A stretch of DNA of 64,000 nucleotides from a virus, in IMG/VR virus record IMGVR_UViG_3300009605_004544, positions 42,982-106,981 of that record. One strand, given 5' to 3'. The stretch's first letter is position 1, and the number at the start of each line of letters is the position of its first letter. Made by a program: the position numbers and the translations under genes. This document shows, in pieces, positions 9,415-33,133 of the stretch. The notes under the pieces were generated by a model. It worked only from the letters and a program-made list of their open reading frames with translations. It ran no database searches and was not told the origin of the DNA.

Positions 9415-9859
9415 GATGGGGGTCATTAAAAACTCCATTCTCAGCGGTGCTGGGAATATAGCAGGATTTCTTGGGGAAGAAGTTGCCAATTCTTTGATCA
9501 AGGGAGAGATCAGCAATACATATGATTATGATATCGTGCATAATGCAAAGACTCAAGAGCTTAAATACGATGTAAAAACTAAAAGATGCACGTCTATCCC
9601 GAAACCCTACTACGAATGCTCAATTGCGGCGTATAATACCAAGCAGGCATGTGACAGGTATGCTTTTGTTCGCATAGAATGGGTCCACGGCAAATGGGGG
9701 AGGGCTTGGGTTTTGGGATGGCTAGACAATAAAGAATATTTCGAGAAGGCTCAGCGGCTTAACAAGGGGGACATTGACCCCTCTAACGGTTATGTAGTCA
9801 AGGCAGACTGCTACAATGTGAGCATCTCGGAATTGAGAGACTTTAGGAGAAGGAAATGA
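9356..9859 (+). CDS. Putative restriction-like PD-(D/E)xK nuclease
   Basis: GFLGEE, YDYDI, YDVKTK. Confidence 0.6.
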   Translation: MIEVKITQKMKKRAWTKAREMGVIKNSILSGAGNIAGFLGEEVANSLIKGEISNTYDYDIVHNAKTQELKYDVKTKRCTSIPKPYYECSIAAYNTKQACDRYAFVRIEWVHGKWGRAWVLGWLDNKEYFEKAQRLNKGDIDPSNGYVVKADCYNVSISELRDFRRRK

Positions 9860-11720: not shown

Positions 11721-11903
11721 ATGACATTATGGATATACTGTCCGAGGTGTGGCAAGGCTGTTGATGAGTTTGAAGAAAGATGCGCCCACTGCGATCTTGG
11801 AGGCATATGGGAACATAATTGGCGAATAATAAGCGAAGAGTTGGAAGATTTTATGACAACCGGAACCCCTCCCAACATGGTTCCAAGGGCAGACAACGGA
11901 TAG
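11721..11903 (+). CDS. Small Zn-ribbon protein
   Basis: CPRC...CAHC; GAGGGG RBS. Confidence 0.6.
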   Translation: MTLWIYCPRCGKAVDEFEERCAHCDLGGIWEHNWRIISEELEDFMTTGTPPNMVPRADNG

Positions 11904-11911
11904 GAGACGAG

Positions 11912-12586
11912 ATGAATAACCGGTGGATTATGGTGTTCGACTTTGAGACAGACGGGGTAGACCCAAATACTTGCAATCCCGTAGAGCTTGCGGCTATTCC
12001 TATCGATCCTCGAACTTTGGAAATTAAAGAGAAGAAAGCTTTTAGCGCTGTCATTAAGCCACCCGGATTTAATAAAGAAGAGTACTTCACAGACGACCGT
12101 CAAAAGACTATAGAATGGCATGCGAAACAGAGGGGCGTAACTAGCGCCGACATTATCAAGTCTTGGAAGAAGGGGAAGAGCGAAAAGATAGTCTGGAAAA
12201 ACTTTTGCGAATACTGCAAGAAGTTCAATATAGAAAAATCTTATGGAAACTGGTACACAGAGCCGATAGCTGCTGGGTATAACATCATCGGATTTGACTT
12301 GCCGATTTGTCAGCGGTTAGCCGACAAGCATAAGACTGGAATGCCATTTGCTAAAGTGAACAAGATGGATCTCATGGACCTCCTGTTTTATTGGTTTGAA
12401 AACCTAGGCGAGCCTAAGAATATGAGACTTGATACAATGCGAGATTTTTTCGGAGTCCAAACAGTCCAAGCGCATGAGGCGTATTCTGACACTTTCGATA
12501 CTGCAAAGCTATTGGTGCAGTTCCTTAAGTTCCATAGGCGACAGTCTAGCGTAGGCAAGTTCAAGGGAGCAATGGTTCAAAAATGA
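11912..12586 (+). CDS. DEDDh 3'-5' exonuclease (DnaQ/epsilon-like)
   Basis: FDFETDG, GYNIIGFD, AHEAYSDT; GGAG RBS before ATG 11912. Confidence 0.9.
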   Translation: MNNRWIMVFDFETDGVDPNTCNPVELAAIPIDPRTLEIKEKKAFSAVIKPPGFNKEEYFTDDRQKTIEWHAKQRGVTSADIIKSWKKGKSEKIVWKNFCEYCKKFNIEKSYGNWYTEPIAAGYNIIGFDLPICQRLADKHKTGMPFAKVNKMDLMDLLFYWFENLGEPKNMRLDTMRDFFGVQTVQAHEAYSDTFDTAKLLVQFLKFHRRQSSVGKFKGAMVQK

Positions 12587-14226
12587 AGAATGCATTTGCA
12601 TGTGGATGCACGTTCGACGTAGTTGACAAGCACGTTGTTTACGATCCCAATATTGAACGCCTGCCTCTCAAATGCTCTGCTACTTGGGATTTAATTTGTG
12701 ATGGAAATACCAAAGGAGTTTTCCAATTGGAATCCCAACTGGGGCGAAGTATGGCTGAACGAGTAAAGCCAAAGAATATAGAAGAGCTATCAGACCTCGT
12801 AGCTATTATTCGACCGGGATGCATGGAGGCAATTGTAGATGGCAAAAGTCTGACACAACACTATATAGATAGAAAGCACGGAATAGACCCCGTCGAATAT
12901 TTTCATGATGCGCTTGAACCGATCTTATCCAGCACCTATGGGATACTCGTCTATCAAGAACAAGCCATCCTTATTGCTAGAGACATCGGGGGTTTCGACC
13001 TACAAGAAGCAGACATTTTGCGCAAAGCCATTGGAAAGAAAAACGTAGGTTTGATGACCGAGCTAAAGAAGCAATTTATTCAAAAGGCAGAGCAAAAAAA
13101 GGTTGTCACAAAAGAGCAAGCTGAAGAAATATTTAGTTGGATTGAAAAATCTCAAAGATACTCATTCAATAAGTCACATTCGGTAAGCTATGCATATAAT
13201 GCGTATCTGACAGCTTACACGAAGACTCACTTCCCAAGGGAGTTCTTCACGTCTTACCTTAAAAATTCAATTGGCAAGCCTGATGCCTACACAGAAATAG
13301 AAGAGCTAGTAAATAACGCTCGCATAATGGACATTGATGTGATGCCCCCGAATATTAAAAAGATGAACAAAAGGTTCACCTTAATAGGCCCCAACCCCAC
13401 ATTCGGCATTACGGAAATTAAGGGCGTAGGTGGTTCCGTGTTTGATAAGATGGGCGACTGCCTGAGTCGCAATCAGATCAATTTAGAAACATGCGACTGG
13501 AATACATTTTTAATAGGATTCGGCTCATGTATTAAAGTAGACTCCTTTGAAGCCTTGATACTTAGCGGCGCACTTGATTGCTTTGATATTAGTCGTAGTC
13601 AAATGGCTCATGAATTGAAAATGTTCAGAGAATTAAGTAAGCGAGAAATCGCTTGGATCGAAACGTACAAGTCGTCGAACGTTAAAGCCGATCTAGAGGG
13701 ATGTATCGCTGAAATGATCTCTACTAACAACTGGTCAAATCCCAAGAGGCCGATATTCAGAAGGGATCGACTAGAGGTAGTAGAAAGCGTTAGGGGTTCT
13801 TTACAGAATCCGGGCTATGAGCTTGTAGACTTTCCCGGCTGGAAAGCCAGAAAGGAAGAACACTACCTTGGAGTCTCTTTAACTTGCGCCCGAGTAGACG
13901 AGTACGATACAAGTGGTGCTAATTGCACATGCAAAGAATACACGGACGGCTTTAACTCAAGGAACGGTATAAGGATAGCCGCCCAGATTGACGGCGTAAG
14001 AGAATGGAAAATTAAAAGAGGAAATGCCAAAGGAAAAAAGATGGCTTTTGTTACCATCAGCGACGGAACTTGCAGCTTAGATAGCGTAACAGTATTTTCT
14101 GATGAGTGGGAAAAATACAGTAACGAATTGTCGGAAGGGAATGTTTTGTTGCTAGCTGGCATGAGAGACTCTAAAAGAGGAAGTTTTCTAATAAAGTCAG
14201 TTTCTAAGGTCAAAAACCTAGCTTAG
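12583..14226 (+). CDS. dnaE: DNA polymerase III alpha, C-terminal half (fingers, HhH, OB)
   Basis: TKGVFQLES, IRPG, GILVYQEQ, ADILRKAIGKK, YSFNKSH, IKGVG, MAFVTISD. Confidence 0.95.
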   Translation: MKNAFACGCTFDVVDKHVVYDPNIERLPLKCSATWDLICDGNTKGVFQLESQLGRSMAERVKPKNIEELSDLVAIIRPGCMEAIVDGKSLTQHYIDRKHGIDPVEYFHDALEPILSSTYGILVYQEQAILIARDIGGFDLQEADILRKAIGKKNVGLMTELKKQFIQKAEQKKVVTKEQAEEIFSWIEKSQRYSFNKSHSVSYAYNAYLTAYTKTHFPREFFTSYLKNSIGKPDAYTEIEELVNNARIMDIDVMPPNIKKMNKRFTLIGPNPTFGITEIKGVGGSVFDKMGDCLSRNQINLETCDWNTFLIGFGSCIKVDSFEALILSGALDCFDISRSQMAHELKMFRELSKREIAWIETYKSSNVKADLEGCIAEMISTNNWSNPKRPIFRRDRLEVVESVRGSLQNPGYELVDFPGWKARKEEHYLGVSLTCARVDEYDTSGANCTCKEYTDGFNSRNGIRIAAQIDGVREWKIKRGNAKGKKMAFVTISDGTCSLDSVTVFSDEWEKYSNELSEGNVLLLAGMRDSKRGSFLIKSVSKVKNLA

Positions 14227-20866: not shown

Positions 20867-21735
20867 AGGTCGTCATACCGCAATTACAGTTGCAGGTTTT
20901 TCAGGACATTGCTCAGTGTCTAGAAAGTGTCAGAGAAACTGCTGGTGTAGACTCGATATTTTGGGACACATCTCGGAAGCCTATTATTGACATGTTTGAC
21001 GAATTGAGGCCAGAGATCGTTCTGTTGCACGAGGCTCAATTAGACGATGCCTTCTCGGTAGTAATTCAAGAATTCGATTTTAAGTATGTTTTGGTAGCAG
21101 AAAAGCATCCTCCCCAATTAAGTAAGCCCCCAGAAGCCCTCATCACAAGCGCACCCTTCCTCCAGAACTTCCCTCAGTCTTATAGAAATCTTATGGAGGC
21201 CAAGCATCTAGCTCGATTGGCACAAATTCATGGAGGGGGTTATAATGACAATATGAAGTCTGAAGTTTTAGTGGACACAACTGGCGTAGGGATAAGCGAG
21301 AATATATATGACGTATTATCGTTTTTAACTTCTAACTATAAAACCAAGATAATCGGAAATAGTCCAGTCAAACTGCATCACTACCTCGGGGCAGTTAACA
21401 TTTTCGAGAGGGCCGATTTTATTAAATCAACACAGATCATGGTTGACTTTAACGGCTCTGGAGTTTGGGACGCTTCCTATTTGAAAATCCCTTCCGTAAC
21501 AGCTAATAACACCACCCCTCACATACTACCATTTGATAGTATAGAAATGTTAAAAAATAACATAGACTCGATTCTGAATAATAAACTGGTACGCAATAAA
21601 TACATTGACCTCTGTTATCAAGAATTGCTTAAGGGGAACACGTACCACCACTTTACCTCGCAGCTTTTCAAAAATATCAAAGAGCCAGACATAGCAAATT
21701 GTCTAACGGCGTATGTGGGAGAACTGTTGCAATGA
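20863..21735 (+). CDS. Hypothetical protein, possibly GT-B/CgeB-like
   Basis: DELRPEIVLL start and GNTYHH end resemble CgeB-like GT-B proteins; lies in the glycosylation cluster. Confidence 0.5.
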   Translation: MKVVIPQLQLQVFQDIAQCLESVRETAGVDSIFWDTSRKPIIDMFDELRPEIVLLHEAQLDDAFSVVIQEFDFKYVLVAEKHPPQLSKPPEALITSAPFLQNFPQSYRNLMEAKHLARLAQIHGGGYNDNMKSEVLVDTTGVGISENIYDVLSFLTSNYKTKIIGNSPVKLHHYLGAVNIFERADFIKSTQIMVDFNGSGVWDASYLKIPSVTANNTTPHILPFDSIEMLKNNIDSILNNKLVRNKYIDLCYQELLKGNTYHHFTSQLFKNIKEPDIANCLTAYVGELLQ

Positions 21736-22190
21736 TAGGGATACTTAAAGGCCCCGTAGATAACAAAGACAAGGACTTCTTTGCTCTTTATAACTTAAAC
21801 AGGTTGTCAAAAACAAAGCATGGCGCGTGTCTTTTCTGTGACCACATTTCAGACAACTTTGCGCTACCTGCTGAAACTAATGTTTTGCAAAGAACCCACG
21901 TATTCAACTTTAACGGGATCGTCATCACTGACGACTTAATGTATGCACAAGATCTCTTGTATATAACCTATGCTAAAAAGAGATTTATATACCTGTACCA
22001 TTTGGATTGGCCCTATATCCAAGAATTAAAATTTGCACATCTTAATAGAATTCTTCTTCACGAGAATATAGAGTTAATTGCTCGTAGCGAGGAACATTTT
22101 CAATTGATAGAGCATCTTTTTAAAAAACCACGATACATAATGGCTGAATGGGATTATCATACACTAATAGAGATAGACGAAAATGAATAA
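21732..22190 (+). CDS. Hypothetical protein (single Rossmann-like domain, GT-associated)
   Basis: IVITD, KRFIYLYHLDW, LIARS; ATGA overlap with the upstream gene. Confidence 0.5.
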   Translation: MIGILKGPVDNKDKDFFALYNLNRLSKTKHGACLFCDHISDNFALPAETNVLQRTHVFNFNGIVITDDLMYAQDLLYITYAKKRFIYLYHLDWPYIQELKFAHLNRILLHENIELIARSEEHFQLIEHLFKKPRYIMAEWDYHTLIEIDENE

Positions 22191-22947
22191 GCAAGAAAAG
22201 TTAATACTGGACCTGTACAATAATCAATGTTGGAGCACATATCAAATCGCAGAAAAGCTAGATACTTATCCCAACAAGATTAGAAGGTTCCTTAAAAAGA
22301 ACGGCATCGAACTACGCACTTCTAGCGATGCGCAAAAGAATGCGCTCGGAAGCGGACGTGCAGAACACCCAACTAAAGGAACCTACAGGTCAGAAGAAAC
22401 CAAGCAGAGAATCAGCGATTCGCAAGGAGCCGTATGGGACGCCTTGACAGACGAAGAAAAAGAGCACCGCTCTCAAATCGGAAGAGAGGCGTGGGAGCAA
22501 AAAAGCGACGAAGAAAAAGCCCTTTTGATTGCCGAAGCTCAAAACGCTGTAAGAAAAAGCAGCAAAGAAGGGTCAAAGCTGGAACATTTCCTTTTGTCTG
22601 AGCTTACCAAAAGGAATCTGAGGGTAGAATTCCATAAGGATCATTGGCTTCAAAACCAAAAACTCCAAGTTGATTTGTATTTGCCTGATCACAGGGCGGT
22701 CATAGAAGTTGACGGCCCTTCACACTTCAAGCCTGTGTGGGGTCAAGAGAATTTGGAAAAGAATATTAAGGCAGACCAGCAAAAAACTGGCCTCGTACTT
22801 GGTGCCGGATTAATGATGATCAGAATTAGACAAGACAAGTCCCTAACCCAAAGGTATATGAGAAACACCTTATCGAAACTATTAGGACTGCTGGAAAAAG
22901 TTAAGGAACATTACCCCGAGGAAAATAAGAGGTACTTTGAGATATGA
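22183..22947 (+). CDS. Homing-endonuclease-like protein: HTH + NUMOD3-like repeat + Vsr/DUF559 nuclease
   Basis: STYQIAEKL HTH, RSEETKQRIS, SKLE...VDLYLP...IEVDGPSH. Confidence 0.8.
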   Translation: MNKQEKLILDLYNNQCWSTYQIAEKLDTYPNKIRRFLKKNGIELRTSSDAQKNALGSGRAEHPTKGTYRSEETKQRISDSQGAVWDALTDEEKEHRSQIGREAWEQKSDEEKALLIAEAQNAVRKSSKEGSKLEHFLLSELTKRNLRVEFHKDHWLQNQKLQVDLYLPDHRAVIEVDGPSHFKPVWGQENLEKNIKADQQKTGLVLGAGLMMIRIRQDKSLTQRYMRNTLSKLLGLLEKVKEHYPEENKRYFEI

Positions 22948-23705
22948 ACAAAATCGCAGAAACAGAATTCGAAGAAATGGTGCAGCCCATATCTGCCGAA
23001 GAAACTGCCATTGATCACATTATTGCCGATGATCTTAAGGGGGCACCAGCAGACTACGAACCGGAATGGTCAGAATATCTATTAGATCAACTATCTGACC
23101 ATGAACTTATTAATGGGGCACCGACTGTAGACGGCCTACGCCGTATTGCTGAAAAATGTTTTGGGGAAATCGTTGATTCTCGTAGCCGGATTGTGGAAAC
23201 TCCTTGTGCAGACAACGGGATGAGATGCACAGTATGCCATACCTTGCGTATTATCAAGTACCGAAACGGTCAACAAGTTCAAGTAGATGGGTGTGTTGAT
23301 GTAGTTTATCATAAGACGCCTTATCCATTCAAGGACCACCTAGTCGCTACTGCCGACACAAGAGCCGAGGGAAAGGCTCTTAGGAGAGCCTTAAAGATCA
23401 GAGTAATAACCGCAGAAGAGCTTCAGCATGAGGATGAAGAGGAAGCTCTGTCTTCTGATGAGGCGGTTAATGATCAGCAAATTCTTGCCATTAACCAGCT
23501 TTGTAAGAGACTAAACATGTCTGTTGTTGCTATTGCCAAGGACCAATACAATACGATAAAAAGCATTAACGACTTAAGGAATTTGGAGGCGAGATTACTG
23601 ATCAGCAAGCTGTCAGAGCTACAAAGAAATCCCGATGATGTGCCAGAATCGTACATCGGTTATGATGAAAATTGGAAAAGTGATTTTTATGGGAGTAAAA
23701 AATGA
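22944..23705 (+). CDS. Putative single-strand annealing protein (Rad52/Red-beta superfamily)
   Basis: VDGLRRIA, ATADTRAEGKALRRAL, C-terminal DQQILAI...ARLLISKL helical domain. Confidence 0.55.
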   Translation: MNKIAETEFEEMVQPISAEETAIDHIIADDLKGAPADYEPEWSEYLLDQLSDHELINGAPTVDGLRRIAEKCFGEIVDSRSRIVETPCADNGMRCTVCHTLRIIKYRNGQQVQVDGCVDVVYHKTPYPFKDHLVATADTRAEGKALRRALKIRVITAEELQHEDEEEALSSDEAVNDQQILAINQLCKRLNMSVVAIAKDQYNTIKSINDLRNLEARLLISKLSELQRNPDDVPESYIGYDENWKSDFYGSKK

Positions 23706-24091
23706 AAGCCAGAATCAAAGCAACCGACAGCCTCTGGTTTGATGTAGAGGCGGAACAAGAAGATGAAGTTTTTAAGCAAATCGCGAGAGTGCAGGAAATA
23801 TTTCAGCATAAGGGATGTGGTCATTGCGAATCACCAAACGTCAAGTTTGTCTGCCGGTTTGATAGCTCGGGTAATGACTGGTTAGAAATTACTTGTCAAG
23901 AATGCCGTGCTAAGCTCATCTTTGGGCGTACAAAAAAGGGAGGTCTGGTCTTTCCTAAAATTAGATGGGATCAGCTTTCTGAAAAACAACAGGAGCAGCG
24001 TATTAATGAAAAGTCGCATGCTGATAAAAATAGAGGGTATCTTCCCGATAGAGGGTGGTTTATTTACAAGCCAATCGTAAGAAATAATTAG
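23702..24091 (+). CDS. Zn-ribbon hypothetical protein
   Basis: CGHC...CQEC. Confidence 0.65.
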   Translation: MKARIKATDSLWFDVEAEQEDEVFKQIARVQEIFQHKGCGHCESPNVKFVCRFDSSGNDWLEITCQECRAKLIFGRTKKGGLVFPKIRWDQLSEKQQEQRINEKSHADKNRGYLPDRGWFIYKPIVRNN

Positions 24092-24102
24092 GAGGAATTG
24101 CC

Positions 24103-24288
24103 ATGCCTACGAGTAATGATGAAGCTAAAAGGATTTGCGACATTATTAACGACTTCTTAAGCGACGAAGAAGCCGTCGCTATAACTCGAAGACTAGATGA
24201 AGAAGTGGGGGTGCATACCGACAATGACTCCTTAAAGGTAAGTCTTAGAATGCTCAGGAATCTATACGAGCGAGGAGAGAGCGAATGA
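24103..24288 (+). CDS. Small helical protein paralogous to the N-terminus of 8848..9414
   Basis: GGAGG RBS; 17/50 gapless identities to the N-terminal domain of ORF 8848. Confidence 0.7.
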   Translation: MPTSNDEAKRICDIINDFLSDEEAVAITRRLDEEVGVHTDNDSLKVSLRMLRNLYERGESE

Positions 24289-24839
24289 GGCTGGACCACA
24301 TAGCTTACCGAGTAGGCAATCGGCATAAGACCGCAAAACTTTTTAAGCGAATGTTTGGCTATGAAATTGGAATCGAATTTTGTATCGATTTTGATGATGG
24401 CTCCAAAGCCGAATGTATCGCAATGACTCCTATCGAAAAAGATAATCCCATATCAAAATTCATTGGCATCCCTTGGGTGACCAAATCGTATGGAATATCG
24501 AAGCCCGTAGAACATCACCTTGCTCCCGAAATTTTTATTAGTGATGGCGCACCCGGATCTATTGTAGGAGATTGGGTGAAATTACATAACGGAGGAGGCA
24601 TTCATCATATGGCATATATGACGAGCCATATACACGACGAGGTCTCAAAATGGAAGAAGCTGGGGATAGAGTTTTTATCAAACGACATAATTGACTGCCC
24701 GGAAGATGACCTGCGACAAATTTTCACTAAGCCACTACCTGAATTGGGCGGTATTATTGTCGAACTAATCGAAAGAGGGGATAAGGGGTTTTGTCAAAAC
24801 TCAGTTAAGCACTTAATGAACAGCACCAAGGGGTTGTAA
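24285..24839 (+). CDS. VOC-fold Fe(II) dioxygenase (HPPD C-domain/HglS-DUF1338-like)
   Basis: DHIAYR, PEIFISD, GGIHHMAY, LRQIFTKP, VELIER, GF...LMNST; His-His-Glu triad. Confidence 0.8.
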   Translation: MRLDHIAYRVGNRHKTAKLFKRMFGYEIGIEFCIDFDDGSKAECIAMTPIEKDNPISKFIGIPWVTKSYGISKPVEHHLAPEIFISDGAPGSIVGDWVKLHNGGGIHHMAYMTSHIHDEVSKWKKLGIEFLSNDIIDCPEDDLRQIFTKPLPELGGIIVELIERGDKGFCQNSVKHLMNSTKGL

Positions 24840-24841
24840 AA

Positions 24842-26341
24842 ATGTGGAAAGCTCAAAACTATATCAATGGTAATTTTGTAAGTAGCGGGTCAGACTCATT
24901 CTTTGATAATGTAGATCCTTGCACGGGAGCTTCTCTCGGCCAGTTTTTCAATTCAAGAGTAGAGGAAGTTGAAGAAGCTTATACCGCTGCCAGAAATGCA
25001 TTCTCTGAATGGCGAGCTACAAGCCGCGTTCAACGCGCCGAATATTTATACAAGGTCGCCAAGCTTATAGAAGAAAGGCGGGAAGAATTAGCATACGTAA
25101 TATCTGTAGAAACAGGTAAGAACTACAATGAGTCCATTGCTGAAGTAAACGAGGCCTTACATATGGCTCAGTATGCTTTTGGCTCTGGAAGAACCCCACA
25201 AGGAGAAGCCGTTGCGTCCGAAATTTCTGAAAAAGACGCCTATGTTCTACGAAAGCCCAAGGGTGTTGTTGCCGTCGTTAGCCCTTGGAATTTTCCTCTT
25301 GCCATTGGTGCTTTTTGGTGCGTTGCTCCTGCAATCGTGGAAGGCAATACGGTCATTCTAAAACCAAGTGAGGACGCCCCTTATACCTCCCAAATGGCAA
25401 TGGAACTGTATCATGAGGCTGGCATTCCCCCCGGAGTGATTAACCTTGTACACGGAGATGGGCTTATAGGAGACTGCTTAGTTAGAAAAGATGTCGACCA
25501 CATTTGCTTTACTGGCAGCGCAGAGGTTGGGCAGCACATTCGAAAAATATGTGCAGATAGCTGGCATAAAACGTGCTCCTGTGAACTTGGAAGCAAGTCT
25601 GCTGTCGTAGTTTTTGAGGACGCTAATTTTGATCTAGCTGTATACTCCTCAGTAGCTAGCGCATTCAAGCTTTCTGGGCAAAGATGCGTGTCCTCTGGTA
25701 GAATAATCGTACAGCGAACAATCTACGATAAGTTCTGCGAGGCTTTCGTAGAAAGGGCCTCCACTGTCAAAGCAGGCGCGCCTTTCGTGGACAACGGGTA
25801 CGTGGTTGGTGGAAAGGTCAAGCCAAGTTCCGCATACATGGGGCCTTTGATCAATGCTCAGCAACTAGAAACCGTTACAAGATTTAATGATATGGTGGCT
25901 GATGATCAAGATGCCGAGGTGCTACTTGAGCCTTCATATCAATCTCCCGGCTACTACGTCAGCCCCCTTGTATATAAAACCGAGTGGAGAAATGTCCCGT
26001 ACTTAAAGAGCGAGGTGTTTGGACCCCATGTTGCACTCATACCCTTTGACACAATTGATGATGCTGTTAGGATCTATAATGATACTGACTATGGCTTGGC
26101 TGTTGGCGTGGTTACTGAAGATTTCAAAAAAGCTAGAATTTGTCGTGATAGGTGTGATTATGGGATGTGCTATTGGAATGGTGGCTCTATCGCTGCTGAG
26201 TCTCATGTACCCTTCGGAGGAGTTAAGAAGTCAGGAAACGGATATCCATCAGCATCCCGAACCTTCCGTGCCGTTACTCACGAAGTAACATGGACAATTA
26301 ATCATGACGACAATCTAGCCTTTCCACAAGGAATGGAATAA
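24842..26341 (+). CDS. NAD(P)-dependent aldehyde dehydrogenase
   Basis: SPWNFP, LKPSE, FTGS, ELGSK (Glu), GQRC (Cys), EVFGP, PFGGVKKSG. Confidence 0.95.
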   Translation: MWKAQNYINGNFVSSGSDSFFDNVDPCTGASLGQFFNSRVEEVEEAYTAARNAFSEWRATSRVQRAEYLYKVAKLIEERREELAYVISVETGKNYNESIAEVNEALHMAQYAFGSGRTPQGEAVASEISEKDAYVLRKPKGVVAVVSPWNFPLAIGAFWCVAPAIVEGNTVILKPSEDAPYTSQMAMELYHEAGIPPGVINLVHGDGLIGDCLVRKDVDHICFTGSAEVGQHIRKICADSWHKTCSCELGSKSAVVVFEDANFDLAVYSSVASAFKLSGQRCVSSGRIIVQRTIYDKFCEAFVERASTVKAGAPFVDNGYVVGGKVKPSSAYMGPLINAQQLETVTRFNDMVADDQDAEVLLEPSYQSPGYYVSPLVYKTEWRNVPYLKSEVFGPHVALIPFDTIDDAVRIYNDTDYGLAVGVVTEDFKKARICRDRCDYGMCYWNGGSIAAESHVPFGGVKKSGNGYPSASRTFRAVTHEVTWTINHDDNLAFPQGME

Positions 26342-26607
26342 TGTTCTCAAACGCGTTCGAGATTTTTCTAAACATGCTGGCCTATTCGTTTTGGCCCTTT
26401 GCATTTTCCTTGATAGCGATCTACGTCTTCAATACGTACCTCAACGACTCTTATAAGAGAAAAGTTAAAAAGGAAAAGAGGGTACGCTCTACGGACCCGG
26501 AAGTTCACGATCTGGCAGAAAAGGCGCTGAACTTCAAGGCTCCCAAGATAGAGACCTCTTTTGGGGATGAGAGAATAGGTGAAGTCCATGCGAGTGAAAA
26601 GGATTAG
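26341..26607 (+). CDS. Small single-pass membrane protein upstream of the actin-like gene
   Basis: Hydrophobic residues ~8-32 followed by basic KRKVKKEKR. Confidence 0.65.
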   Translation: MFSNAFEIFLNMLAYSFWPFAFSLIAIYVFNTYLNDSYKRKVKKEKRVRSTDPEVHDLAEKALNFKAPKIETSFGDERIGEVHASEKD

Positions 26608-26651
26608 AGAGTTAACAGGACTCCAACTAGAATAACAAGAGGTAATTGAAA

Positions 26652-27701
26652 ATGACAGATGCTGCCCCCCTTCCTTCAGTCAATGCTCGCGCTATAGGTG
26701 TGGACATTGGAACCGGATTTATATCTTGTGCAGAAAAAGAAGCAGGAGACGTAAAGTTCCGAAAGATTAGAGACGCTTTTTTCAAACTCAACCCCTCCAA
26801 GTTCCTTGAGGGTTCAGCGAGTCAGTTCGGTGAAAGTATGCTAAAAAATTCTGGTGCTCATTATGTTAAGGTTGATGGCATCCTACATGTTCTAGGTGAC
26901 GACGCCTTCAAGTTCGCAAATCTATTCCATCAAGAATGCCTTAGACCTATGTCAAAGGGTGTTCTGAACCCCAAGCAGCCGGTCTCAAATCTCATGGTGG
27001 GAGAGCTTGTCAAGGCTATAGCTGGAAAGCCTACGGCAGATAGCGACGTTCTATACTACTGCGTTCCCGCTGAGCCAATTGATGCGGACTTTGACGTGGA
27101 GTACCATAAACAGATATTAGGGGGCGTTTTTGACGATCTAGGCTATAAAAATGTTAACGTAATGACGGAGGGGCTGGCTGTCGTATACTCAGAGTTAGCT
27201 GACACGCAGTACAGCGGCATTGGAATGAGCTTCGGAGCCGGTATGTGCAACATTGTCTACTCCTTTATGGGTATTCCTGTCTTTGCCTTCAGCTTGAGCC
27301 GGGGTGGAGACTGGATCGACAGTCATGCGGCTCAGCACACGGACGAGACCCATAACGTGGTGACTGCTGTCAAAGAAAAGGCCGACTTTAGCCTTTACGA
27401 TTCTACAAATGGGATTCAACGGGCAGTTTCTATCTACTATGAATCTTTACTAAATTATGTTGTTGAACAATTCAAGGAATTGTATGAAAGAACCCCTAAG
27501 AAGAAATTGCCAAATGTTACTGCGGAAATGCCGATTGTAGTAGCGGGAGGGACTTCTCTAGTTGCAGGATTCGTGGAAAGACTTAAGGAGTTAATAGTAG
27601 ACGATTTCCCAGTCCCTATCTCTGAAGTAAGGCACGCAGAGCAACCTCTTTTCGCTGTTTCCAATGGCCTTTATCGGGCAGCCAAGCTCTCCCTCTCTTG
27701 A
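26652..27701 (+). CDS. Actin-fold ATPase, volactin-like family
   Basis: Phosphate-1 GVDIGTG, connect EGLAVVYSEL, phosphate-2 SFGAGMCN, RGGDWID, adenosine VAGGTS, PLFAVSNG. Confidence 0.88.
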   Translation: MTDAAPLPSVNARAIGVDIGTGFISCAEKEAGDVKFRKIRDAFFKLNPSKFLEGSASQFGESMLKNSGAHYVKVDGILHVLGDDAFKFANLFHQECLRPMSKGVLNPKQPVSNLMVGELVKAIAGKPTADSDVLYYCVPAEPIDADFDVEYHKQILGGVFDDLGYKNVNVMTEGLAVVYSELADTQYSGIGMSFGAGMCNIVYSFMGIPVFAFSLSRGGDWIDSHAAQHTDETHNVVTAVKEKADFSLYDSTNGIQRAVSIYYESLLNYVVEQFKELYERTPKKKLPNVTAEMPIVVAGGTSLVAGFVERLKELIVDDFPVPISEVRHAEQPLFAVSNGLYRAAKLSLS

Positions 27702-27712
27702 AGGATATTAAT

Positions 27713-28681
27713 ATGGAAATGACAGAAACTATTAACCGTATATTTGATAAGCGCAAAGGTCTCTTAGCTGCTGACGAGAGCACCCCCACCATACAAAAAA
27801 GATTTGACTCTGTGGGAATGTCTTCTACGCCAGAAACGAGACATGACTATCGACACAATCTTTTTTCCACAGAGGGGCTGGAACGCTATATCGGGGGCGT
27901 CATCTTATATGATGAAACGATCAGGAACAAAGAGACCATAGCGCCATTGCTGGACAAGGGAATTACTTTAGGTATCAAGGTAGACGGGGGAGCCAAGCCC
28001 TACAATAAAACAGGGGGCAAGCTAACGGAGGGACTTGATGGACTTACAGAAAGGCTTCGAGAATATAAAGACTTGGGGGCCGAATTCGCTAAGTGGCGTG
28101 CCGTTATTGACGTTAATGATGCCGATACTTGCTTACTGGCTAATGCTTGGACTCTGGCTAGATATGCTAGAAAGTGTCAAGAAGAAAAGATAGTCCCTAT
28201 AGTGGAGCCAGAAGTATTGATGGATGGAGTACAAACAATCTGGAAGTCTTTTGATGTAACGGAAAAGATACTCCACATTCTATTTGACGCCCTATATTGG
28301 GAAAGAGTTGATTTGGAACAGATCATTCTCAAGCCCAATATGATCGTCTCTGGATACAAGAGCACCATTCGGGAGAGATCAGAAGGTGTGAGCGCCGCCA
28401 CTTTAAATTGCTTTCAAAGAACCGTGCCCTCTGCGGTTCCAGCAATTGCTTTCTTAAGTGGTGGGCAAAAGGATGAAGAAGCAATTAATAATCTAGCCGA
28501 AATGAACAAGCAGTCCTATTTGCCTTGGGTGGCCTCATTTTCCTTTGGTCGAACAATGCAGAGCGGTGCTTTAGAATTGTGGGCAGCTAATAAAAAGTCA
28601 GATGCTAGACATTGGACATTTGAAAGGGCTAAGGATTGTTCTCAAGCAGTGTCTGGGAAATCAGTGAGTTGGGAGAAATGA
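27713..28681 (+). CDS. fda: Fructose-bisphosphate aldolase class I
   Basis: KGLLAADES, GIKVD, TEGLDGL, FAKWR, VPIVEPEV, LKPNM (Schiff-base Lys), FLSGGQ, FSFGR. Confidence 0.95.
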   Translation: MEMTETINRIFDKRKGLLAADESTPTIQKRFDSVGMSSTPETRHDYRHNLFSTEGLERYIGGVILYDETIRNKETIAPLLDKGITLGIKVDGGAKPYNKTGGKLTEGLDGLTERLREYKDLGAEFAKWRAVIDVNDADTCLLANAWTLARYARKCQEEKIVPIVEPEVLMDGVQTIWKSFDVTEKILHILFDALYWERVDLEQIILKPNMIVSGYKSTIRERSEGVSAATLNCFQRTVPSAVPAIAFLSGGQKDEEAINNLAEMNKQSYLPWVASFSFGRTMQSGALELWAANKKSDARHWTFERAKDCSQAVSGKSVSWEK

Positions 28682-28845
28682 GAATGGGTCTTTGGGCACT
28701 ACTGATGTCGAGCGTTCTTTATGCTGTTGTATCTGTCGATCTAGCTATTAAAAATAAGTACGCCCTATCTATTATTTTTTTGTGCTATACCATAGCAAAC
28801 TTAGGGTACGTCTGGCTAGCTTATTACGATAAGGAGGGGTCATGA
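28678..28845 (+). CDS. Small two-helix membrane protein
   Basis: 55 aa, two hydrophobic segments, YTIANLG; GGGAG RBS. Confidence 0.6.
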   Translation: MRMGLWALLMSSVLYAVVSVDLAIKNKYALSIIFLCYTIANLGYVWLAYYDKEGS

Positions 28846-29891
28846 TAAATAATCGAACTGCTATTGTTGGCGCAGGGAATATGGGGAAAGCGATAGCTTG
28901 GGCCATGGAAAGCTTGGATCATGATGTTGTGGTGCTAGATCAAGATGAAAAGGCAATATTTGATTGTCAAAAAATATTAAAACCTTCTCGACATAAGTTC
29001 ATTCGAGGCACATCGTATCAGATGTTAAAAGAGTGCTCGATGGTAATCTCGTCACTACCCTACCATCAGAACCTGAAATTAGCAACTTTCTGCATTGACA
29101 ATGGAATAAAATATCTTGACCTAGGTGGCTGCGTTAAAGTCAGCGAAAAAATTAACGAATACGCCAATCACAAAGCAGAGTGCCCTGTAATGACAGATCT
29201 GGGCCTTGCACCGGGCTGGGTTAATATCGTGGCTGAAAATCTGTACCGAGAATACGTAGAAAGCAAGGGTGAAATTCCCAACTCAATCACGATGATGGCA
29301 GGAGGACTTCCTCAGAGACCTACTAATACTTTAAAATATGGCTGCACATGGTCATATGCTGGCTTAATAAACGAATACAGAGATAATTGTATCGTTTTGA
29401 TAAACGGCCTTCAAGACGTGCAAAGAGGGATGGGCGGATTTGAAGAACCTGTACAAACCGAAATCGGTGAGTTAGAAGCGTTCTATACTAGCGGGGGAGC
29501 AGCCCATACAATTGCCACGATGCAAAGACGAAAAGTTCCCAATTGCTGCTATAAAACATTAAGATATCCGGGCCATCATAGAATTGTTAACTTTCTAATC
29601 CACGAATCTGGGTTGGACGACGAAGCTCTGACGAAAGTCTTTCAAAGAACGTGCCCTCCTCGGGACGACTTAGTAATTATGCGTGTCGCAGTAGACGATC
29701 TATTGTTTGAAAGGGTCATCAGGTCTGACCAAAAATTCTCTGCCATGCAAAAGGCTACGGCGTTTCCTATTGCCGCAGCGGCCCATACGGCAGCCTCTTA
29801 TGACTTCTCGCAGCCTGTTTTAAAATATGACGACCTTGGAGTCACACCATTTAATACATGGCTAGATGTTCTGTTCTTACATACGTATTAG
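28842..29891 (+). CDS. Saccharopine dehydrogenase family, lysine 6-dehydrogenase-like
   Basis: GAGNMG, YLDLGG, DLGLAPG, GGLPQRP, TWSYAGLINEY, LEAFYTSGG, YKTLRYPGH, SAMQ. Confidence 0.88.
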   Translation: MINNRTAIVGAGNMGKAIAWAMESLDHDVVVLDQDEKAIFDCQKILKPSRHKFIRGTSYQMLKECSMVISSLPYHQNLKLATFCIDNGIKYLDLGGCVKVSEKINEYANHKAECPVMTDLGLAPGWVNIVAENLYREYVESKGEIPNSITMMAGGLPQRPTNTLKYGCTWSYAGLINEYRDNCIVLINGLQDVQRGMGGFEEPVQTEIGELEAFYTSGGAAHTIATMQRRKVPNCCYKTLRYPGHHRIVNFLIHESGLDDEALTKVFQRTCPPRDDLVIMRVAVDDLLFERVIRSDQKFSAMQKATAFPIAAAAHTAASYDFSQPVLKYDDLGVTPFNTWLDVLFLHTY

Positions 29892-30115
29892 ACGGGCCAT
29901 TTGGGGTCGTTTGGAGAGCACCTGCCGGTCAAATTAAGCAAAAACTTTTTAAGCTCTATAATTTGCGCCGCCCTCTTTAGGATATGCCTCCTTTTCATCT
30001 CGTCCCCTCCCATCGCTGTACACTCATGATCCTTTCTTTTAATTACTTCAATAGCATGTTGATGTTTTCGAATCAAATATTCGGCTTTCTTGTCTTCTCT
30101 AATTGGGCCATTCAT
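29888..30115 (-). CDS. Hypothetical protein
   Basis: 75-aa ORF with ATGA overlap to the upstream OCD-family gene. Confidence 0.55.
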   Translation of the reverse strand: MNGPIREDKKAEYLIRKHQHAIEVIKRKDHECTAMGGDEMKRRHILKRAAQIIELKKFLLNLTGRCSPNDPKWPV

Positions 30116-31032
30116 GTCGTCCTCTCATAAACGTATCTGGCTGTAGCTATATCTTCAATTGCTAATCCGGTAGCGTCAAACAGCGTGCCCATGGTGCGAT
30201 CAATATTATTGTACTCTAAAGGTCCACTGACTATTTCCCCCAAAGAAAATAAAGCTGGCCTGCGAATACACTCTGATAAGTATTGAATTTCTCCTGAATG
30301 AGAGCATTGCTCCCACTCGTCATAAACGATGAGTCCCATATGGTTAATTACAGAAGCATCTAGCTCTCTTTTCCCCTTGGCGTCTGCGCCAACGGCATTG
30401 ATAAGAACTGATTCTTTTAACCACTCCTGCTTAATAAAGCCCTTCCGAGAAGGGGTAAGGGTGGTTACGATATCGGCATCCCTTAAGCATTCTGCTAGGC
30501 TGTCGAAGACTCTTGCGTTGTCAAACTCTTCGGCCATCCTGTGCGCTCGGTCTGAATCTAAGTCATATAAAAATATCTCATGTATATCTCTAACGGCGGT
30601 AACGGCCTCGATTTGTCTTTTTGTTTGATTCCCGCACCCAATAAAAGCCGCTGTTTGCGAATCAAGTCTAGACAAGTATTTGGTGGCGACTCCCGTTACA
30701 GCCGCTGTTCTAATGGCAGTTAACGTTTCTCCATCCATGATGCATAAAAGCTTGCCCGTCTTAATGTCGTTAATTAAAACTTTGGCAAAAATATTGACTT
30801 TTCGCTTCGTGCCTGTATCATCGAGATGGACACCGCACCATTTTATTCCCGCCGTATCGTATGCTATAGCGGGCATCGCTCGAAAGTCTCCGTTAGGAAT
30901 GTTTAGATAAGTTTTTGGAGGCATCTGAGTATGGTCTAGGTTTTTGAACAGCCTTTCTATAATATTAATACATTCAGGGACAGTAATTAACTTTCCAACT
31001 TCGTCATTACTCAAAATAGGAACATTTTGCAT
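30112..31032 (-). CDS. Ornithine cyclodeaminase/mu-crystallin family (archaeal-type alanine dehydrogenase/ketimine reductase-like)
   Basis: MPPKTYL...GDFRAMPA, GIKW, LTAIRTAA, IGCGNQ, NAVGAD, FDATGLAIED; GAGGT RBS before ATG 31032. Confidence 0.92.
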   Translation of the reverse strand: MQNVPILSNDEVGKLITVPECINIIERLFKNLDHTQMPPKTYLNIPNGDFRAMPAIAYDTAGIKWCGVHLDDTGTKRKVNIFAKVLINDIKTGKLLCIMDGETLTAIRTAAVTGVATKYLSRLDSQTAAFIGCGNQTKRQIEAVTAVRDIHEIFLYDLDSDRAHRMAEEFDNARVFDSLAECLRDADIVTTLTPSRKGFIKQEWLKESVLINAVGADAKGKRELDASVINHMGLIVYDEWEQCSHSGEIQYLSECIRRPALFSLGEIVSGPLEYNNIDRTMGTLFDATGLAIEDIATARYVYERTT

Positions 31033-31043
31033 TTGACAGCACC

Positions 31044-31733
31044 TCAACCTAATCTGTCTAGAATTTTAGCAATAATATCATTCCTAATAATATCTCGTCC
31101 TTCTAATTTACAGATAGATATGCCCTCTATCTCTCCTAACTTTTCCATGCAGGTTTCGAGTCCTCCTTTCATGTAGTCATTAAGGTCTGTTTGATCAGGG
31201 TCTCCATTTAATACCGCTTTAGAGTTTTTCCCAATCCTCGTAACAAACATTTTTATTTGTTCAAGCGTGGCATTTTGGGCTTCGTCTAAAATCATAAACG
31301 TGTTGTGGAAATTCCTTCCACGCATATATTCCAGCGGACACAGTTCTATTATGTTGTTAAAACGAAGGCTATCTAGCATGTCTCGTGAGATATATTTACC
31401 CATTTCTTCCAACACAGGAACAAGATAGGGTTGAATCTTATCTGTGTAAGTTCCCGGTAAATGTCCAAGTCCTCCCCCCGTTTCTACTGTAGGGCGAGCT
31501 ATGACGATCTTGCCCACCGTGTTTTCCTGAAGAAGCTGGCATCCAAGGCCAACCGCAACAGCAGTTTTACCAGAACCGGCAGGGCCAGTGCAGAATACGA
31601 CATCGGATTTTATCATGGCCTTAAGATAATTCGATTGATTTTCAGTTTTCGGGATTACTTTTCTTTGTGGATACCCTCCGTCAGAATGAGTTTTCGGGAG
31701 GTCACTGTTATTTTTCTTTTTCTTTCTGGGCAA
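31044..31733 (-). CDS. phoH: PhoH-family ATPase
   Basis: GPAGSGKT, ARP, LGHLPG, YMRGRNF, LDEAQN, GDPDQTD. Confidence 0.95.
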   Translation of the reverse strand: MPRKKKKNNSDLPKTHSDGGYPQRKVIPKTENQSNYLKAMIKSDVVFCTGPAGSGKTAVAVGLGCQLLQENTVGKIVIARPTVETGGGLGHLPGTYTDKIQPYLVPVLEEMGKYISRDMLDSLRFNNIIELCPLEYMRGRNFHNTFMILDEAQNATLEQIKMFVTRIGKNSKAVLNGDPDQTDLNDYMKGGLETCMEKLGEIEGISICKLEGRDIIRNDIIAKILDRLG

Positions 31734-31737
31734 CAGA

Positions 31738-32187
31738 CTACTCTTTTTTTCTAAACGGAAGGATTTTATTCAAAAACTGCTTTCTTTTATCGCACCCACA
31801 CCCCTGTATCCCTGACCATTCTTCTACAGACTTTTCTGTAATTCCGAGCTTTCCAAATATTCCAGCCAGCAAATTCCCAAGCCCCTCTTGTTTTTCTTCA
31901 TAGTTATCTAAATTAACCCCAGACTCTTCTACCTCATTAATAACTTCGTCTAGTCGTTTTTTATTTGCGCTCATTTTTCTAGACTCCTTTGTACGGTCCT
32001 CTCGCTCTTGCCTTTCGGCTTCATTAGCGGGAGGAGCAAAAAAGTTCTGAAAATTCTTTCGCCACACTTCGTCTGTTTGGCACAAGCGATGCAAACGTTT
32101 CGTCATAGTAATTCCATACACCGGGCAGAACCCTGCTTCGGAGCACTGGCATTCATTATTACAAATATTGGGTTTTTCTTCAGACAT
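31738..32187 (-). CDS. Cys-motif hypothetical protein
   Basis: CNNECQC...FCP at the N-terminus; GCGCDKRKQFLN at the C-terminus. Confidence 0.7.
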   Translation of the reverse strand: MSEEKPNICNNECQCSEAGFCPVYGITMTKRLHRLCQTDEVWRKNFQNFFAPPANEAERQEREDRTKESRKMSANKKRLDEVINEVEESGVNLDNYEEKQEGLGNLLAGIFGKLGITEKSVEEWSGIQGCGCDKRKQFLNKILPFRKKE

Positions 32188-32218
32188 CAGTGCTTCCTCT
32201 TAACATTTATGTTTCCAG

Positions 32219-33133
32219 CTAGGGAGAACAGGCACCTTCTGTAATCAGGCCAGACCACTGCATCACTACTGGGTGAATGGGGGGTGTCATCGAAGGATCA
32301 GGGTCGAGCATTCCTGTCTGACAGTCACAGTTGATAAGGAACTCCCCCTCCACCAAGAGCATAAACTTTTGTCCTTCGGTGCCCTTGCATTGGCCGCTTA
32401 CCAGATCAGCACAGTTGTTGATACTTAATGTGCCTTCCGTGGTCTGCGGCCACTCTTCGGTGCCAGTGTAATAAGCACAAGGAGAGCAGGGAACCGAGCA
32501 GGGTTCTATTTCAAACCAGAAGCAGTGTGAGGAGCATGGAAGAGGTCCAGCCCCCGTTACAATGCCGTCTCCCTCTGTGGCGCATGGGCCGTTCGGGTGG
32601 AGTTGCGGGCATGGATGATCGAAGCCGAGAGGAAGACCAGTAACTTGAATTCCCGTCTTGCAACAACATAGGCTGGCGGTAATGCACATGCCATCACAGT
32701 CAGACCCTGACATAGGAGGTGAGCTAGTAGTGCAGTCGCCACAGACAGTCCCTGAGAAACCCCACGCTTCTATATAAGCTCCCGTTGGCTGGTCTTGGTA
32801 TTCGGCAAGGCACACGGTGCAGAGCGCCCCGCCGGGATTCAAGTCGCCGTCACTGTGGTAGTAACACATGGATGGCGATTTGGCGAACGTAAATGAGAAG
32901 TCGTCGCACATGCATGGCGATCCACCGCCGCCACCGCCGCCACCACCTTGGATGCGACAATTAATCATCTCAAAGCAAAGAGGTCCAGTTGGAACGCAAG
33001 CGCAGCAATTACAATAACACGAGTCAATATTGGCCCCGATGGGAACCCCCGGAGTTCCTGCGGGCGGTGCTGTGCAACATGAACAGCAAGTGTTTCCGTA
33101 TCTTGGCCCTATGCCTATATGCGTAACGCTCAT
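32219..33133 (-). CDS. Cysteine-rich protein, probably tail-tip associated
   Basis: About 35 Cys in 304 aa, poly-Gly linker; start overlaps the stop of the 2433-aa gene. Confidence 0.7.
   Translation of the reverse strand: MSVTHIGIGPRYGNTCCSCCTAPPAGTPGVPIGANIDSCYCNCCACVPTGPLCFEMINCRIQGGGGGGGGGSPCMCDDFSFTFAKSPSMCYYHSDGDLNPGGALCTVCLAEYQDQPTGAYIEAWGFSGTVCGDCTTSSPPMSGSDCDGMCITASLCCCKTGIQVTGLPLGFDHPCPQLHPNGPCATEGDGIVTGAGPLPCSSHCFWFEIEPCSVPCSPCAYYTGTEEWPQTTEGTLSINNCADLVSGQCKGTEGQKFMLLVEGEFLINCDCQTGMLDPDPSMTPPIHPVVMQWSGLITEGACSP

Follow-up and report, generated by a model that had tools for sequence, protein, structure and literature searches.

A three-gene module of uncultured marine phages predicted to degrade host lysine, by analogy with a bacterial pathway

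In Pseudomonas putida, 2-aminoadipate is converted to 2-oxoadipate (by PP_4108), then to D-2-hydroxyglutarate (by HglS, PP_5260) and finally to 2-oxoglutarate (by PP_4493); genes of the DUF1338 family often neighbour those for aldehyde dehydrogenases (ALDHs) and aminotransferases (bioRxiv 10.1101/450254). A cluster of metabolic genes in a 64-kb stretch of viral DNA (IMG/VR record IMGVR_UViG_3300009605_004544, positions 42,982 to 106,981; ‘the window’ in what follows), a large phage-like genome from an uncultured marine phage, may be understood as a counterpart of this route. Three of its enzymes, a lysine 6-dehydrogenase (LysDH)-like protein of the Sacchrp_dh family, an ALDH and a small protein of the VOC fold, are read here as an auxiliary metabolic gene (AMG) module that would feed host lysine into central metabolism: predicted functions, analogous to those of a known bacterial pathway and including a new minimal enzyme family. 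That the full pathway operates as proposed is given odds a little better than even (about 0.55). An initial annotation had already suggested a lysine-catabolic module at this place. The trio it named has held up, with conservation among relatives, a predicted substrate pocket, the fold of the VOC protein and bacterial operons in its favor; membership of the VOC protein in the HGLS family, a canonical delta1-piperideine-6-carboxylate (P6C) dehydrogenase and a fourth enzyme, of the OCD family, have not.

The closest cellular parallels are operons. Two Roseateles genomes (L083 and L099) have an HGLS gene directly after the genes for LysDH and P6C dehydrogenase, and the next gene encodes an FAD-linked oxidase, a type that includes the D-2-hydroxyglutarate dehydrogenases; in Chitinophaga (L093) the HGLS gene stands between LysDH and P6C dehydrogenase. 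The gene content of both matches the 2-aminoadipate route of P. putida. By tblastn, about 12 of 80 cellular loci carry an HGLS gene, and none of the viral loci does; a further HGLS match, in the L089 genome, lay on a contig that was not placed on the locus, and was dropped. The phage trio resembles these operons in its three chemical roles, in the pocket residues of LysDH and in a VOC protein with a His/His/Glu set and a His-x3-Arg motif. It differs in several ways: the phage ALDH is 27–29% identical and reaches 257 bits on the P6C dehydrogenase model; the VOC protein has 184 aa, compared with 300–370 aa, and fails the Pfam HGLS model; the order is VOC-ALDH...LysDH rather than LysDH-ALDH-HGLS; and the phage has no 2-hydroxyglutarate dehydrogenase. 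As bacterial operons with the same roles exist, the trio looks like a non-orthologous analogue that reproduces those roles with different ALDH and VOC lineages.

Likeness to the P. putida route itself is confined to the proposed last steps and to an Fe(II)-dependent VOC enzyme with an Arg four residues past the first His (bioRxiv 10.1101/450254; PMC7286885). There, however, 2-aminoadipate comes from D-lysine via pipecolate and not from a lysine 6-dehydrogenase, and the phage has neither the aminotransferase nor the 2-hydroxyglutarate dehydrogenase. In the viral homospermidine synthases (PBCV-1, phage phiRSL1; PMC9992855) an enzyme of the Sacchrp_dh superfamily likewise serves as a viral AMG; these belong to another branch of the superfamily, with another chemistry and without ALDH or VOC partners.

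The enzyme genes in question are the following:

24285-24839, plus strand: VOC protein, single domain, 184 aa (Glyoxalase_4)
24842-26341, plus strand: ALDH, 499 aa (PF00171, 437 bits)
28842-29891, plus strand: Sacchrp_dh-family enzyme, lysine 6-dehydrogenase-like, 349 aa (Pfam Sacchrp_dh_NADP and Sacchrp_dh_C)
30112-31047, minus strand: OCD/mu-crystallin-family NAD(P) enzyme (PF02423 OCD_Mu_crystall, 240 bits)

All four lie in the list of open reading frames (ORFs) where the initial annotation had put them, and Pfam confirms each family. The ALDH gene starts 2 nt past the VOC stop and is translationally coupled to the VOC gene. The earliest start of the OCD gene is a TTG at 31047; its first ATG, at 31032, is residue 6.

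A profile search of IMG/VR finds the dehydrogenase in at least 94 contigs, at 36–96% identity, and its neighbours were counted in 80 viral loci, out to 10 kb on contigs long enough for this. An ALDH is present in 66 of the 80 and a VOC protein in 46; the corresponding counts are 13 for PhoH, 8 for OCD, 4 for actin and 2 for aldolase. Wherever VOC and ALDH are both seen they are directly adjacent, VOC first, on one strand; except in three loci, the pair is found upstream of the dehydrogenase, and the gap between ALDH and dehydrogenase is 0–6 kb. The VOC gene is found in all four near-complete (91–100%) related genomes, in one of them ~20 kb from the dehydrogenase; a 103-kb contig has the VOC-ALDH pair ~70 kb away from it, so the linkage is not merely positional. 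Taken together, the neighbour counts and genome-wide searches define the conserved unit as a trio and not a quartet: VOC, ALDH and dehydrogenase, with VOC-ALDH the tightest pair, and with OCD, aldolase and actin as variable neighbours. The related contigs share the replication genes of the window, which points to a phage lineage with a mosaic AMG region.

Annotated phages have little of this. Among annotated phage genomes there is no close dehydrogenase, only one in LR756504 at 30%; in the annotated phage collection the VOC protein occurs only in two huge uncultured phages; and an ALDH 52% identical to that of the window, in LR756511, has no VOC or dehydrogenase gene within 10 kb. A literature search on lysine or saccharopine dehydrogenase, HPPD or lysine degradation as phage AMGs found nothing relevant. 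The module is undescribed in the open literature searched, and no publication on it was found.

The interval between ALDH and dehydrogenase varies among relatives. In 38 related loci (L002 9559-9972 and 37 others) it holds a gene of ~137 aa, sometimes in two copies, with a DxDxT...DD signature as in small HAD phosphatases and no Pfam or NCBIfam match; considered as a part of the module, this gene was judged unrelated, and it is absent from the window. In L018 (7178-10001), and also in L036 and L038, the interval contains DDAH/arginine-deiminase-like, class-III aminotransferase and short UDP-glucose-dehydrogenase-like genes; these three loci also have an OCD gene ~2 kb upstream of VOC, making an expanded amino-acid island.

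The motifs that the initial annotation had recognized in the dehydrogenase (GGLPQRP, WSxxGLINEY, EAFYTSGG and YKTLRYPGH) are all present in the alignment, as are an invariant Rossmann GxGxxG (G10, G12, G15) and an invariant acidic D33 after beta-2. Its best solved relative in the PDB is PH1688 (3ABI), the L-lysine 6-dehydrogenase of P. horikoshii, at 3e-18 with the single sequence and 2.8e-34 with the family profile; saccharopine enzymes come next (1e-12 to 1e-17), and neither carboxyspermidine dehydrogenase (CASDH) nor homospermidine synthase (HSS) appears at E<=0.001 in the PDB searches. With the L-lysine 6-dehydrogenases (EC 1.4.1.18; 3ABI and LysEDH) it shares the domain pair, the Rossmann motif, YKT-x-RY-x-GH and GL-x-x-E/H-Y, and it differs in belonging to a virus-only clade: in a tree, 81 viral dehydrogenases form one clade, free of cellular sequences and set on a long branch (support 0.88). 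At position 215 most viral sequences have Tyr, where cellular ones have Asn.

For LysEDH of G. stearothermophilus, a homology model places H181, Y238 and T240 at the alpha-amino group of lysine and R242 at the alpha-carboxylate, and experiments show that the carboxylate of lysine is essential (PMC6697735). These residue roles come from the model, and the motifs were matched via the sequence in the supplement of that paper. The four residues correspond to E178, Y237, T239 and R241 in the window: E-Y-K-T-I-R-Y-R-G-H in LysEDH is Y237-K-T239-L-R241-Y-P-G-H245 here, and G-L-L-D-H-Y is G-L-I-N-E178-Y, the Glu being found also in PH1688. None of the four varies among 80 viral sequences, and 80 cellular homologues have the same residues; Y237, T239, R241 and H245 lay outside the search patterns used to retrieve the loci. 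These homologues from cells belong to genuine lysine pathways: the ALDHs beside them reach 758–831 bits on the P6C dehydrogenase equivalog (cut-off 730). As the invariant pocket is common to these enzymes, we infer that the viral dehydrogenase binds lysine, or a very similar omega-amino acid, as they do. The LysDH-type assignment of the initial annotation agrees with the first place of 3ABI and with the conservation of the presumed lysine-binding residues.

The module might instead act on another amino compound (an ornithine- or arginine-derived one, another omega-amino acid or a polyamine), with the ALDH oxidizing the aldehyde released. The Sacchrp_dh superfamily does include HSS and CASDH, and polyamine members occur in viruses (PMC9992855); the viral clade is 30–35% identical to cellular LysDH-like enzymes; the best models of the ALDH are for 2-oxoglutarate-semialdehyde, aminobutyraldehyde and betaine-aldehyde dehydrogenases; and DDAH/arginine-deiminase-like and class-III aminotransferase genes lie in the cluster of one viral lineage, as an ArgZ-like gene lies near a Binatia locus. 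This explanation has to contend with the rank of PH1688, first in the PDB where CASDH and HSS do not appear, and with the residues for the alpha-amino-acid end of lysine, which are invariant and identical to those of enzymes in P6C dehydrogenase/HGLS operons. It is rated quite unlikely.

The ALDH carries the catalytic motifs PWNFP, KPSE, FTGS, ELGSK, GQRC and EVFGP. Its best NCBIfam model is of the GucD type (2-oxoglutarate-semialdehyde dehydrogenase, 337 bits), with HpaE, aminobutyraldehyde and betaine-aldehyde dehydrogenases as further best models, all of them far under their cut-offs; there is no ALDH7-type structure among its top PDB matches. Within the lysine pathway it would presumably oxidize 2-aminoadipate semialdehyde, or the 2-oxo analogue, in an NAD(P)-dependent reaction.

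The signatures DHIAYR, PEIFISD and terminal GF...ST noted by the initial annotation are present in the sequence of the VOC protein, and the Chitinophaga HGLS protein has the same three (N-D-H-I-A-F-R, P-R-I-F-I-S-E and Y-V-E-F-A-E-R...G-F-E-A-G-N-A-D-K-I-F-E-S-T). The window protein scores 26.3 bits on Glyoxalase_4, just under the 27-bit cut-off, and 36 of 36 family members match that model. In an alignment of the 36, H5, R9, E82, H107/H108, Q145, E160 and R164 are invariant and the tail G-F-C-x-x-x-V-K-x-L-M-x-S-T is conserved. H5, H107/H108 and E160 make up the His/His/Glu set. In HglS, the metal ligands are His70, His226 and Glu294; Arg74 forms a salt bridge to the distal carboxylate of 2-oxoadipate, the R74A change abolishes activity, and >99% of bacterial homologues retain the Arg (PMC7286885). 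The arrangement His5-x3-Arg9, found in 36 of 36 viral proteins, appears to mirror His70/Arg74.

Comparison of structures points first to HmaS. An AlphaFold (AF2) model of the VOC protein is confident (pLDDT 86), and was compared with 48,161 PDB representatives by VIA. The best match of the model is the catalytic C-terminal domain (157–345) of HmaS, 2R5V, with Z 18.0 over 156 residues (rmsd 2.7). Rice HglS with 2-oxoadipate (6W1K) follows at Z 13.5 over 160 residues, a value equalled by two small glyoxalase/epimerase proteins (13.5–13.9); other DUF1338 structures fall below HmaS (3LHO Z 11.9, 3IUZ 10.8, 2RJB 8.1), and HPPD structures give about Z 10. HglS has ~460 aa with helical decorations. 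With the HmaS/HPPD proteins (2R5V, 1T47, 1CJX) the phage protein shares the best fold match, the metal-ligand positions and the series L-x-Q-I-F-T-K-P ... E-x-I-E-R ... G-F ... K-x-L; those proteins have two VOC domains (~350–400 aa) and an aromatic 2-oxoacid substrate, whereas the phage protein consists of nothing but the catalytic domain. It also has Arg9 at His+4, where HPPDs have Asn, and Val174 where 1T47 has Phe364.

Against the PDB, the VOC profile finds methylmalonyl-CoA epimerase (MMCE) first (1e-11), then also HPPD cores and, as a separate match, the HPPD C-terminal tail; against HPPD 1T47 the E-value is 3e-5. When the 55-residue tail is used alone, the PDB matches are all HPPDs, 21 of 21; on S. 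avermitilis HPPD 1T47 it aligns Q145 with Q334, F147 with F336, E160 with E349 and F169 with F359, Glu349 of HPPD being the Fe ligand. The protein, one domain of 184 aa, scores 39.4 bits on TIGR01263 (HPPD/HmaS; cut-off 277) and 35.4 bits on TIGR03081 (MMCE; cut-off 114.95), below both, though its core is similar to the latter. The model and alignments led to the conclusion that it is a stand-alone catalytic domain of HmaS/HPPD/HglS type, outside the Pfam HGLS family, and most probably an Fe(II)-dependent, decarboxylating oxygenase that acts on a dicarboxylic 2-oxoacid.

A narrower pathway would consist of dehydrogenase and ALDH only, from lysine to 2-aminoadipate, with the VOC protein doing something separate as an epimerase/isomerase, a glyoxalase-like detoxifier or an oxygenase of another 2-oxoacid, such as 4-hydroxyphenylpyruvate. 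Epimerases, headed by MMCE at 1e-11, are indeed its second-best matches when sequence and structure are both considered, ranking high by Foldseek as well as by VIA. The invariant Glu82, whose position is inferred to fall on the strand of the fourth ligand of glyoxalase I and MMCE, could be a fourth metal ligand, as in those enzymes, which would favor an isomerase over an oxygenase. Gln145 and Phe147 match Gln334 and Phe336 of HPPD, pocket residues around the aromatic substrate, and several loci have ALDH and dehydrogenase without a nearby VOC gene. Yet HmaS clearly leads the structural matches (Z 18, the others reaching about 14); the HPPD-type tail, with its 21 of 21 HPPD matches, is absent from epimerases; the invariant Arg at His+4 is the specificity feature of HglS; the VOC gene accompanies the dehydrogenase in 4 of 4 near-complete genomes; and bacterial LysDH operons have their HGLS gene at the equivalent place. 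A separate role for the VOC protein is unlikely on balance, though it deserves real weight.

The full pathway then reads as follows. The dehydrogenase, as an NAD+-dependent L-lysine 6-dehydrogenase, would yield ammonia and 2-aminoadipate semialdehyde/delta1-piperideine-6-carboxylate; the ALDH would oxidize the semialdehyde to 2-aminoadipate; an aminotransferase of the host, not encoded in the window, would convert this to 2-oxoadipate; the VOC protein, as a minimal Fe(II) intramolecular oxygenase, would produce 2-hydroxyglutarate and CO2 from 2-oxoadipate, as its fold, ligands and His-x3-Arg motif suggest; and a 2-hydroxyglutarate dehydrogenase of the host would complete the conversion to 2-oxoglutarate. 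The infected cell would gain NADH, ammonia and C5 carbon. For the third step, one related lineage has a class-III aminotransferase, and here the alanine-dehydrogenase-like OCD enzyme might act. The order may differ too. Given that no pair is tighter than VOC-ALDH, and given the likeness of the ALDH to 2-oxoglutarate-semialdehyde dehydrogenases, the alpha-amino group may be removed first, and the ALDH would then yield 2-oxoadipate directly.

Several facts weigh against this pathway. We know of no enzyme activity for any member of the viral clades, and no cellular relative (185,579 species genomes) is more than ~35% identical to the viral dehydrogenase. The ALDH reaches 257 bits on the P6C/aminoadipate-semialdehyde dehydrogenase model NF050084, against a cut-off of 730, and is not an orthologue; its specificity is not readable from sequence. 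It is an ALDH (437 bits, with the motifs), not a canonical P6C dehydrogenase. Pfam HGLS/DUF1338 (PF07063) is matched at E<=0.01 by 0 of the 36 VOC family members, the window protein included, and the VOC family aligns weakly by hhalign with the HGLS proteins of the bacterial loci (probability 2.3%, E 0.021); the second His and the Glu are in register in that weak alignment. The HglS-like enzyme of the initial annotation is thereby kept in its fold and His-x3-Arg motif and given up as a DUF1338/HGLS member (0/36), in favor of a half-size HmaS/HPPD-like domain. The four near-complete relatives have no PF00202 aminotransferase (0/4) and effectively no PF00155 one (0/4, with one 19.9-bit match); and the missing alpha-deamination step would fall between ALDH and VOC, whose genes are linked more tightly than any other pair. 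Finally, some relatives have the dehydrogenase without VOC or ALDH on the available fragment, and AMGs cluster in islands; co-location by itself is weak evidence.

The OCD gene bears on the same missing step. Its best NCBIfam model is archaeal alanine dehydrogenase (AlaDH) TIGR02371, at 228 bits below the cut-off of 409, and its best PDB match is A. fulgidus AlaDH (1OMO/1VLL, 1e-58), followed by Pyr2C reductase 6T3E; cyclodeaminases come at ~1e-22. The gene is convergent with the trio and co-oriented with PhoH, in the PhoH operon. The initial annotation had made it a pathway member, and one may picture the four enzymes as one fixed pathway, OCD acting on pipecolate or piperideine carboxylate: in the window and in L001/L007, 220 nt separate it from the dehydrogenase, at least three gene arrangements place it near the trio (upstream of VOC in L018/L036/L038, downstream in L048/L080, and in L074), and its family includes P2C/Pyr2C reductases and lysine cyclodeaminase. 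Against this, OCD is found at 8 of 80 loci and in one of the four near-complete relatives, ~21 kb away there; its gene runs on the opposite strand, its nearest relatives are archaeal AlaDH and ketimine reductases rather than cyclodeaminases, and none of the 80 cellular LysDH loci has an OCD gene. A fixed quartet is very unlikely, and the OCD gene is best described as a doubtful accessory. It could make 2-oxoadipate as an amino-acid dehydrogenase, a minority reading given its sporadic presence and its strand.

A bolder version of the lysine pathway gives both the VOC and the OCD proteins larger parts. The VOC family is very large (2245 clusters at 90% identity), and in the atlas its nearest clusters are labelled 90–100% viral. 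The VOC protein might found an almost exclusively viral family of minimal oxygenases, ‘half-size hydroxyglutarate synthases’; the trio would be a widespread pathway of ocean phages from lysine to 2-hydroxyglutarate and 2-oxoglutarate; and OCD would here supply the step from 2-aminoadipate to 2-oxoadipate, without a transaminase. In this entirety the proposal is tentative, and rather less than probable. An atlas row that names an HGLS cluster of giant viruses (rank 15, score 0.92) was kept as a lead only.

Cellular relatives of the viral type are also found. An operon in the Nitrospirales metagenome-assembled genome (MAG) OZ244884.1 (L101 6740-11071) comprises fatty-acid-desaturase-like, ALDH, VOC and Sacchrp_dh genes; its ALDH (37% identical) and VOC protein (31%) are of the viral type, and the VOC gene lies between those for the ALDH and the LysDH-like enzyme. 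The phage module may have been drawn from cells with this operon or have passed into them. In Nitrospirales and Binatia MAGs the closer ALDH (37–38%) is encoded directly upstream of the LysDH-like gene. The Binatia locus has an ArgZ-like gene nearby.

If the full pathway is real, many uncultured marine phages turn host lysine into NADH, ammonia and 2-oxoglutarate during infection, an AMG function not found described in the open literature searched. The VOC protein would then be a new minimal enzyme, an HmaS/HPPD-type catalytic domain of ~185 residues with the 2-oxoadipate-binding arginine of HglS, useful as a small biocatalyst and for work on the evolution of specificity among these oxygenases. 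The module would also be a case of non-orthologous replacement, in which phages rebuilt the bacterial LysDH-P6C dehydrogenase-HglS operon from other ALDH and VOC lineages.

All of this presupposes that the genes belong to the phage. A chimeric assembly, or host DNA caught within a phage contig, was a caveat of the initial annotation; metabolic genes of cellular type do sit within a phage contig here, and GC is 0.43–0.45 at 24–30 kb against 0.40 just upstream. Contigs from independent marine metagenome runs refute it. The left edge, from upstream phage genes into VOC and ALDH, is bridged by X9 (22285-25222) and X11 (21029-25225); the right edge, from dehydrogenase through OCD to PhoH and beyond, is bridged by X7 (29556-32863), X9 (28072-30202) and X11 (28812-32303), with 0 differences in X9 22285-25222, X7 and X11. 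As both junctions are bridged in independent runs, the cluster is not a chimera. The same gene order, without the 88-aa ORF and the actin gene listed below, is kept in the 96%-identical IMG/VR relative L001, and the dehydrogenase and VOC families are virus-specific clades; the probability left to a chimera is vanishingly small.

Contig depth is ~2–3x in the bins 25137-25603 (ALDH) and 27939-28405 (aldolase) in three runs, and contigs break there, which suggests that other phage populations in those samples have these conserved ALDH and aldolase segments as well.

The remaining genes of the cluster, the last three of which the initial annotation did not mention, are these:

24103..24288, plus strand: 61-aa ORF, its stop overlapping the VOC start by 4 nt
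26341-26607: 88-aa ORF, between ALDH and actin
26646-27701: Volactin-type actin, 351 aa (PF25216, 5e-74)
27698-28681: class I fructose-bisphosphate aldolase (NF033379, 379 bits, above cut-off)

The 61-aa ORF has no Pfam match, and tblastn finds homologues only in the closest relatives, L001 and L007. Just upstream of the module, an HNH/homing-endonuclease-like gene (22183-22947; phrog_559, 1e-12) is kept in the closest relatives.

Around the cluster, the plus-strand block of the window encodes RecA, DnaB, primase, a split DNA polymerase III (Pol III) alpha, a nuclease and glycosyltransferases; on the minus strand, a second block holds PhoH, giant ORFs of 2433 and 3891 aa and many genes whose products have no Pfam match. 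There are no tRNAs in the window, and a scan of it for promoters and terminators gave a result at chance level. A search with Pol III alpha found no close cultured phage, identity being at most 35%. The polymerase is encoded by two ORFs (9856-11718 and 12583-14226) ~860 bp apart; the gap holds a 255-aa ORF (11819-12586), and Pol III alpha is split likewise in related contigs.

The actin gene and the 88-aa ORF (26341-27701) are missing from the 96%-identical L001, and the actin is 84–91% identical in the more distant L003-L005 and L007; with its absence from a close relative and presence in distant ones, actin behaves as an indel cassette. The aldolase gene has a short stretch 77% DNA-identical to the aldolase gene of Prochlorococcus phage P-TIM68.

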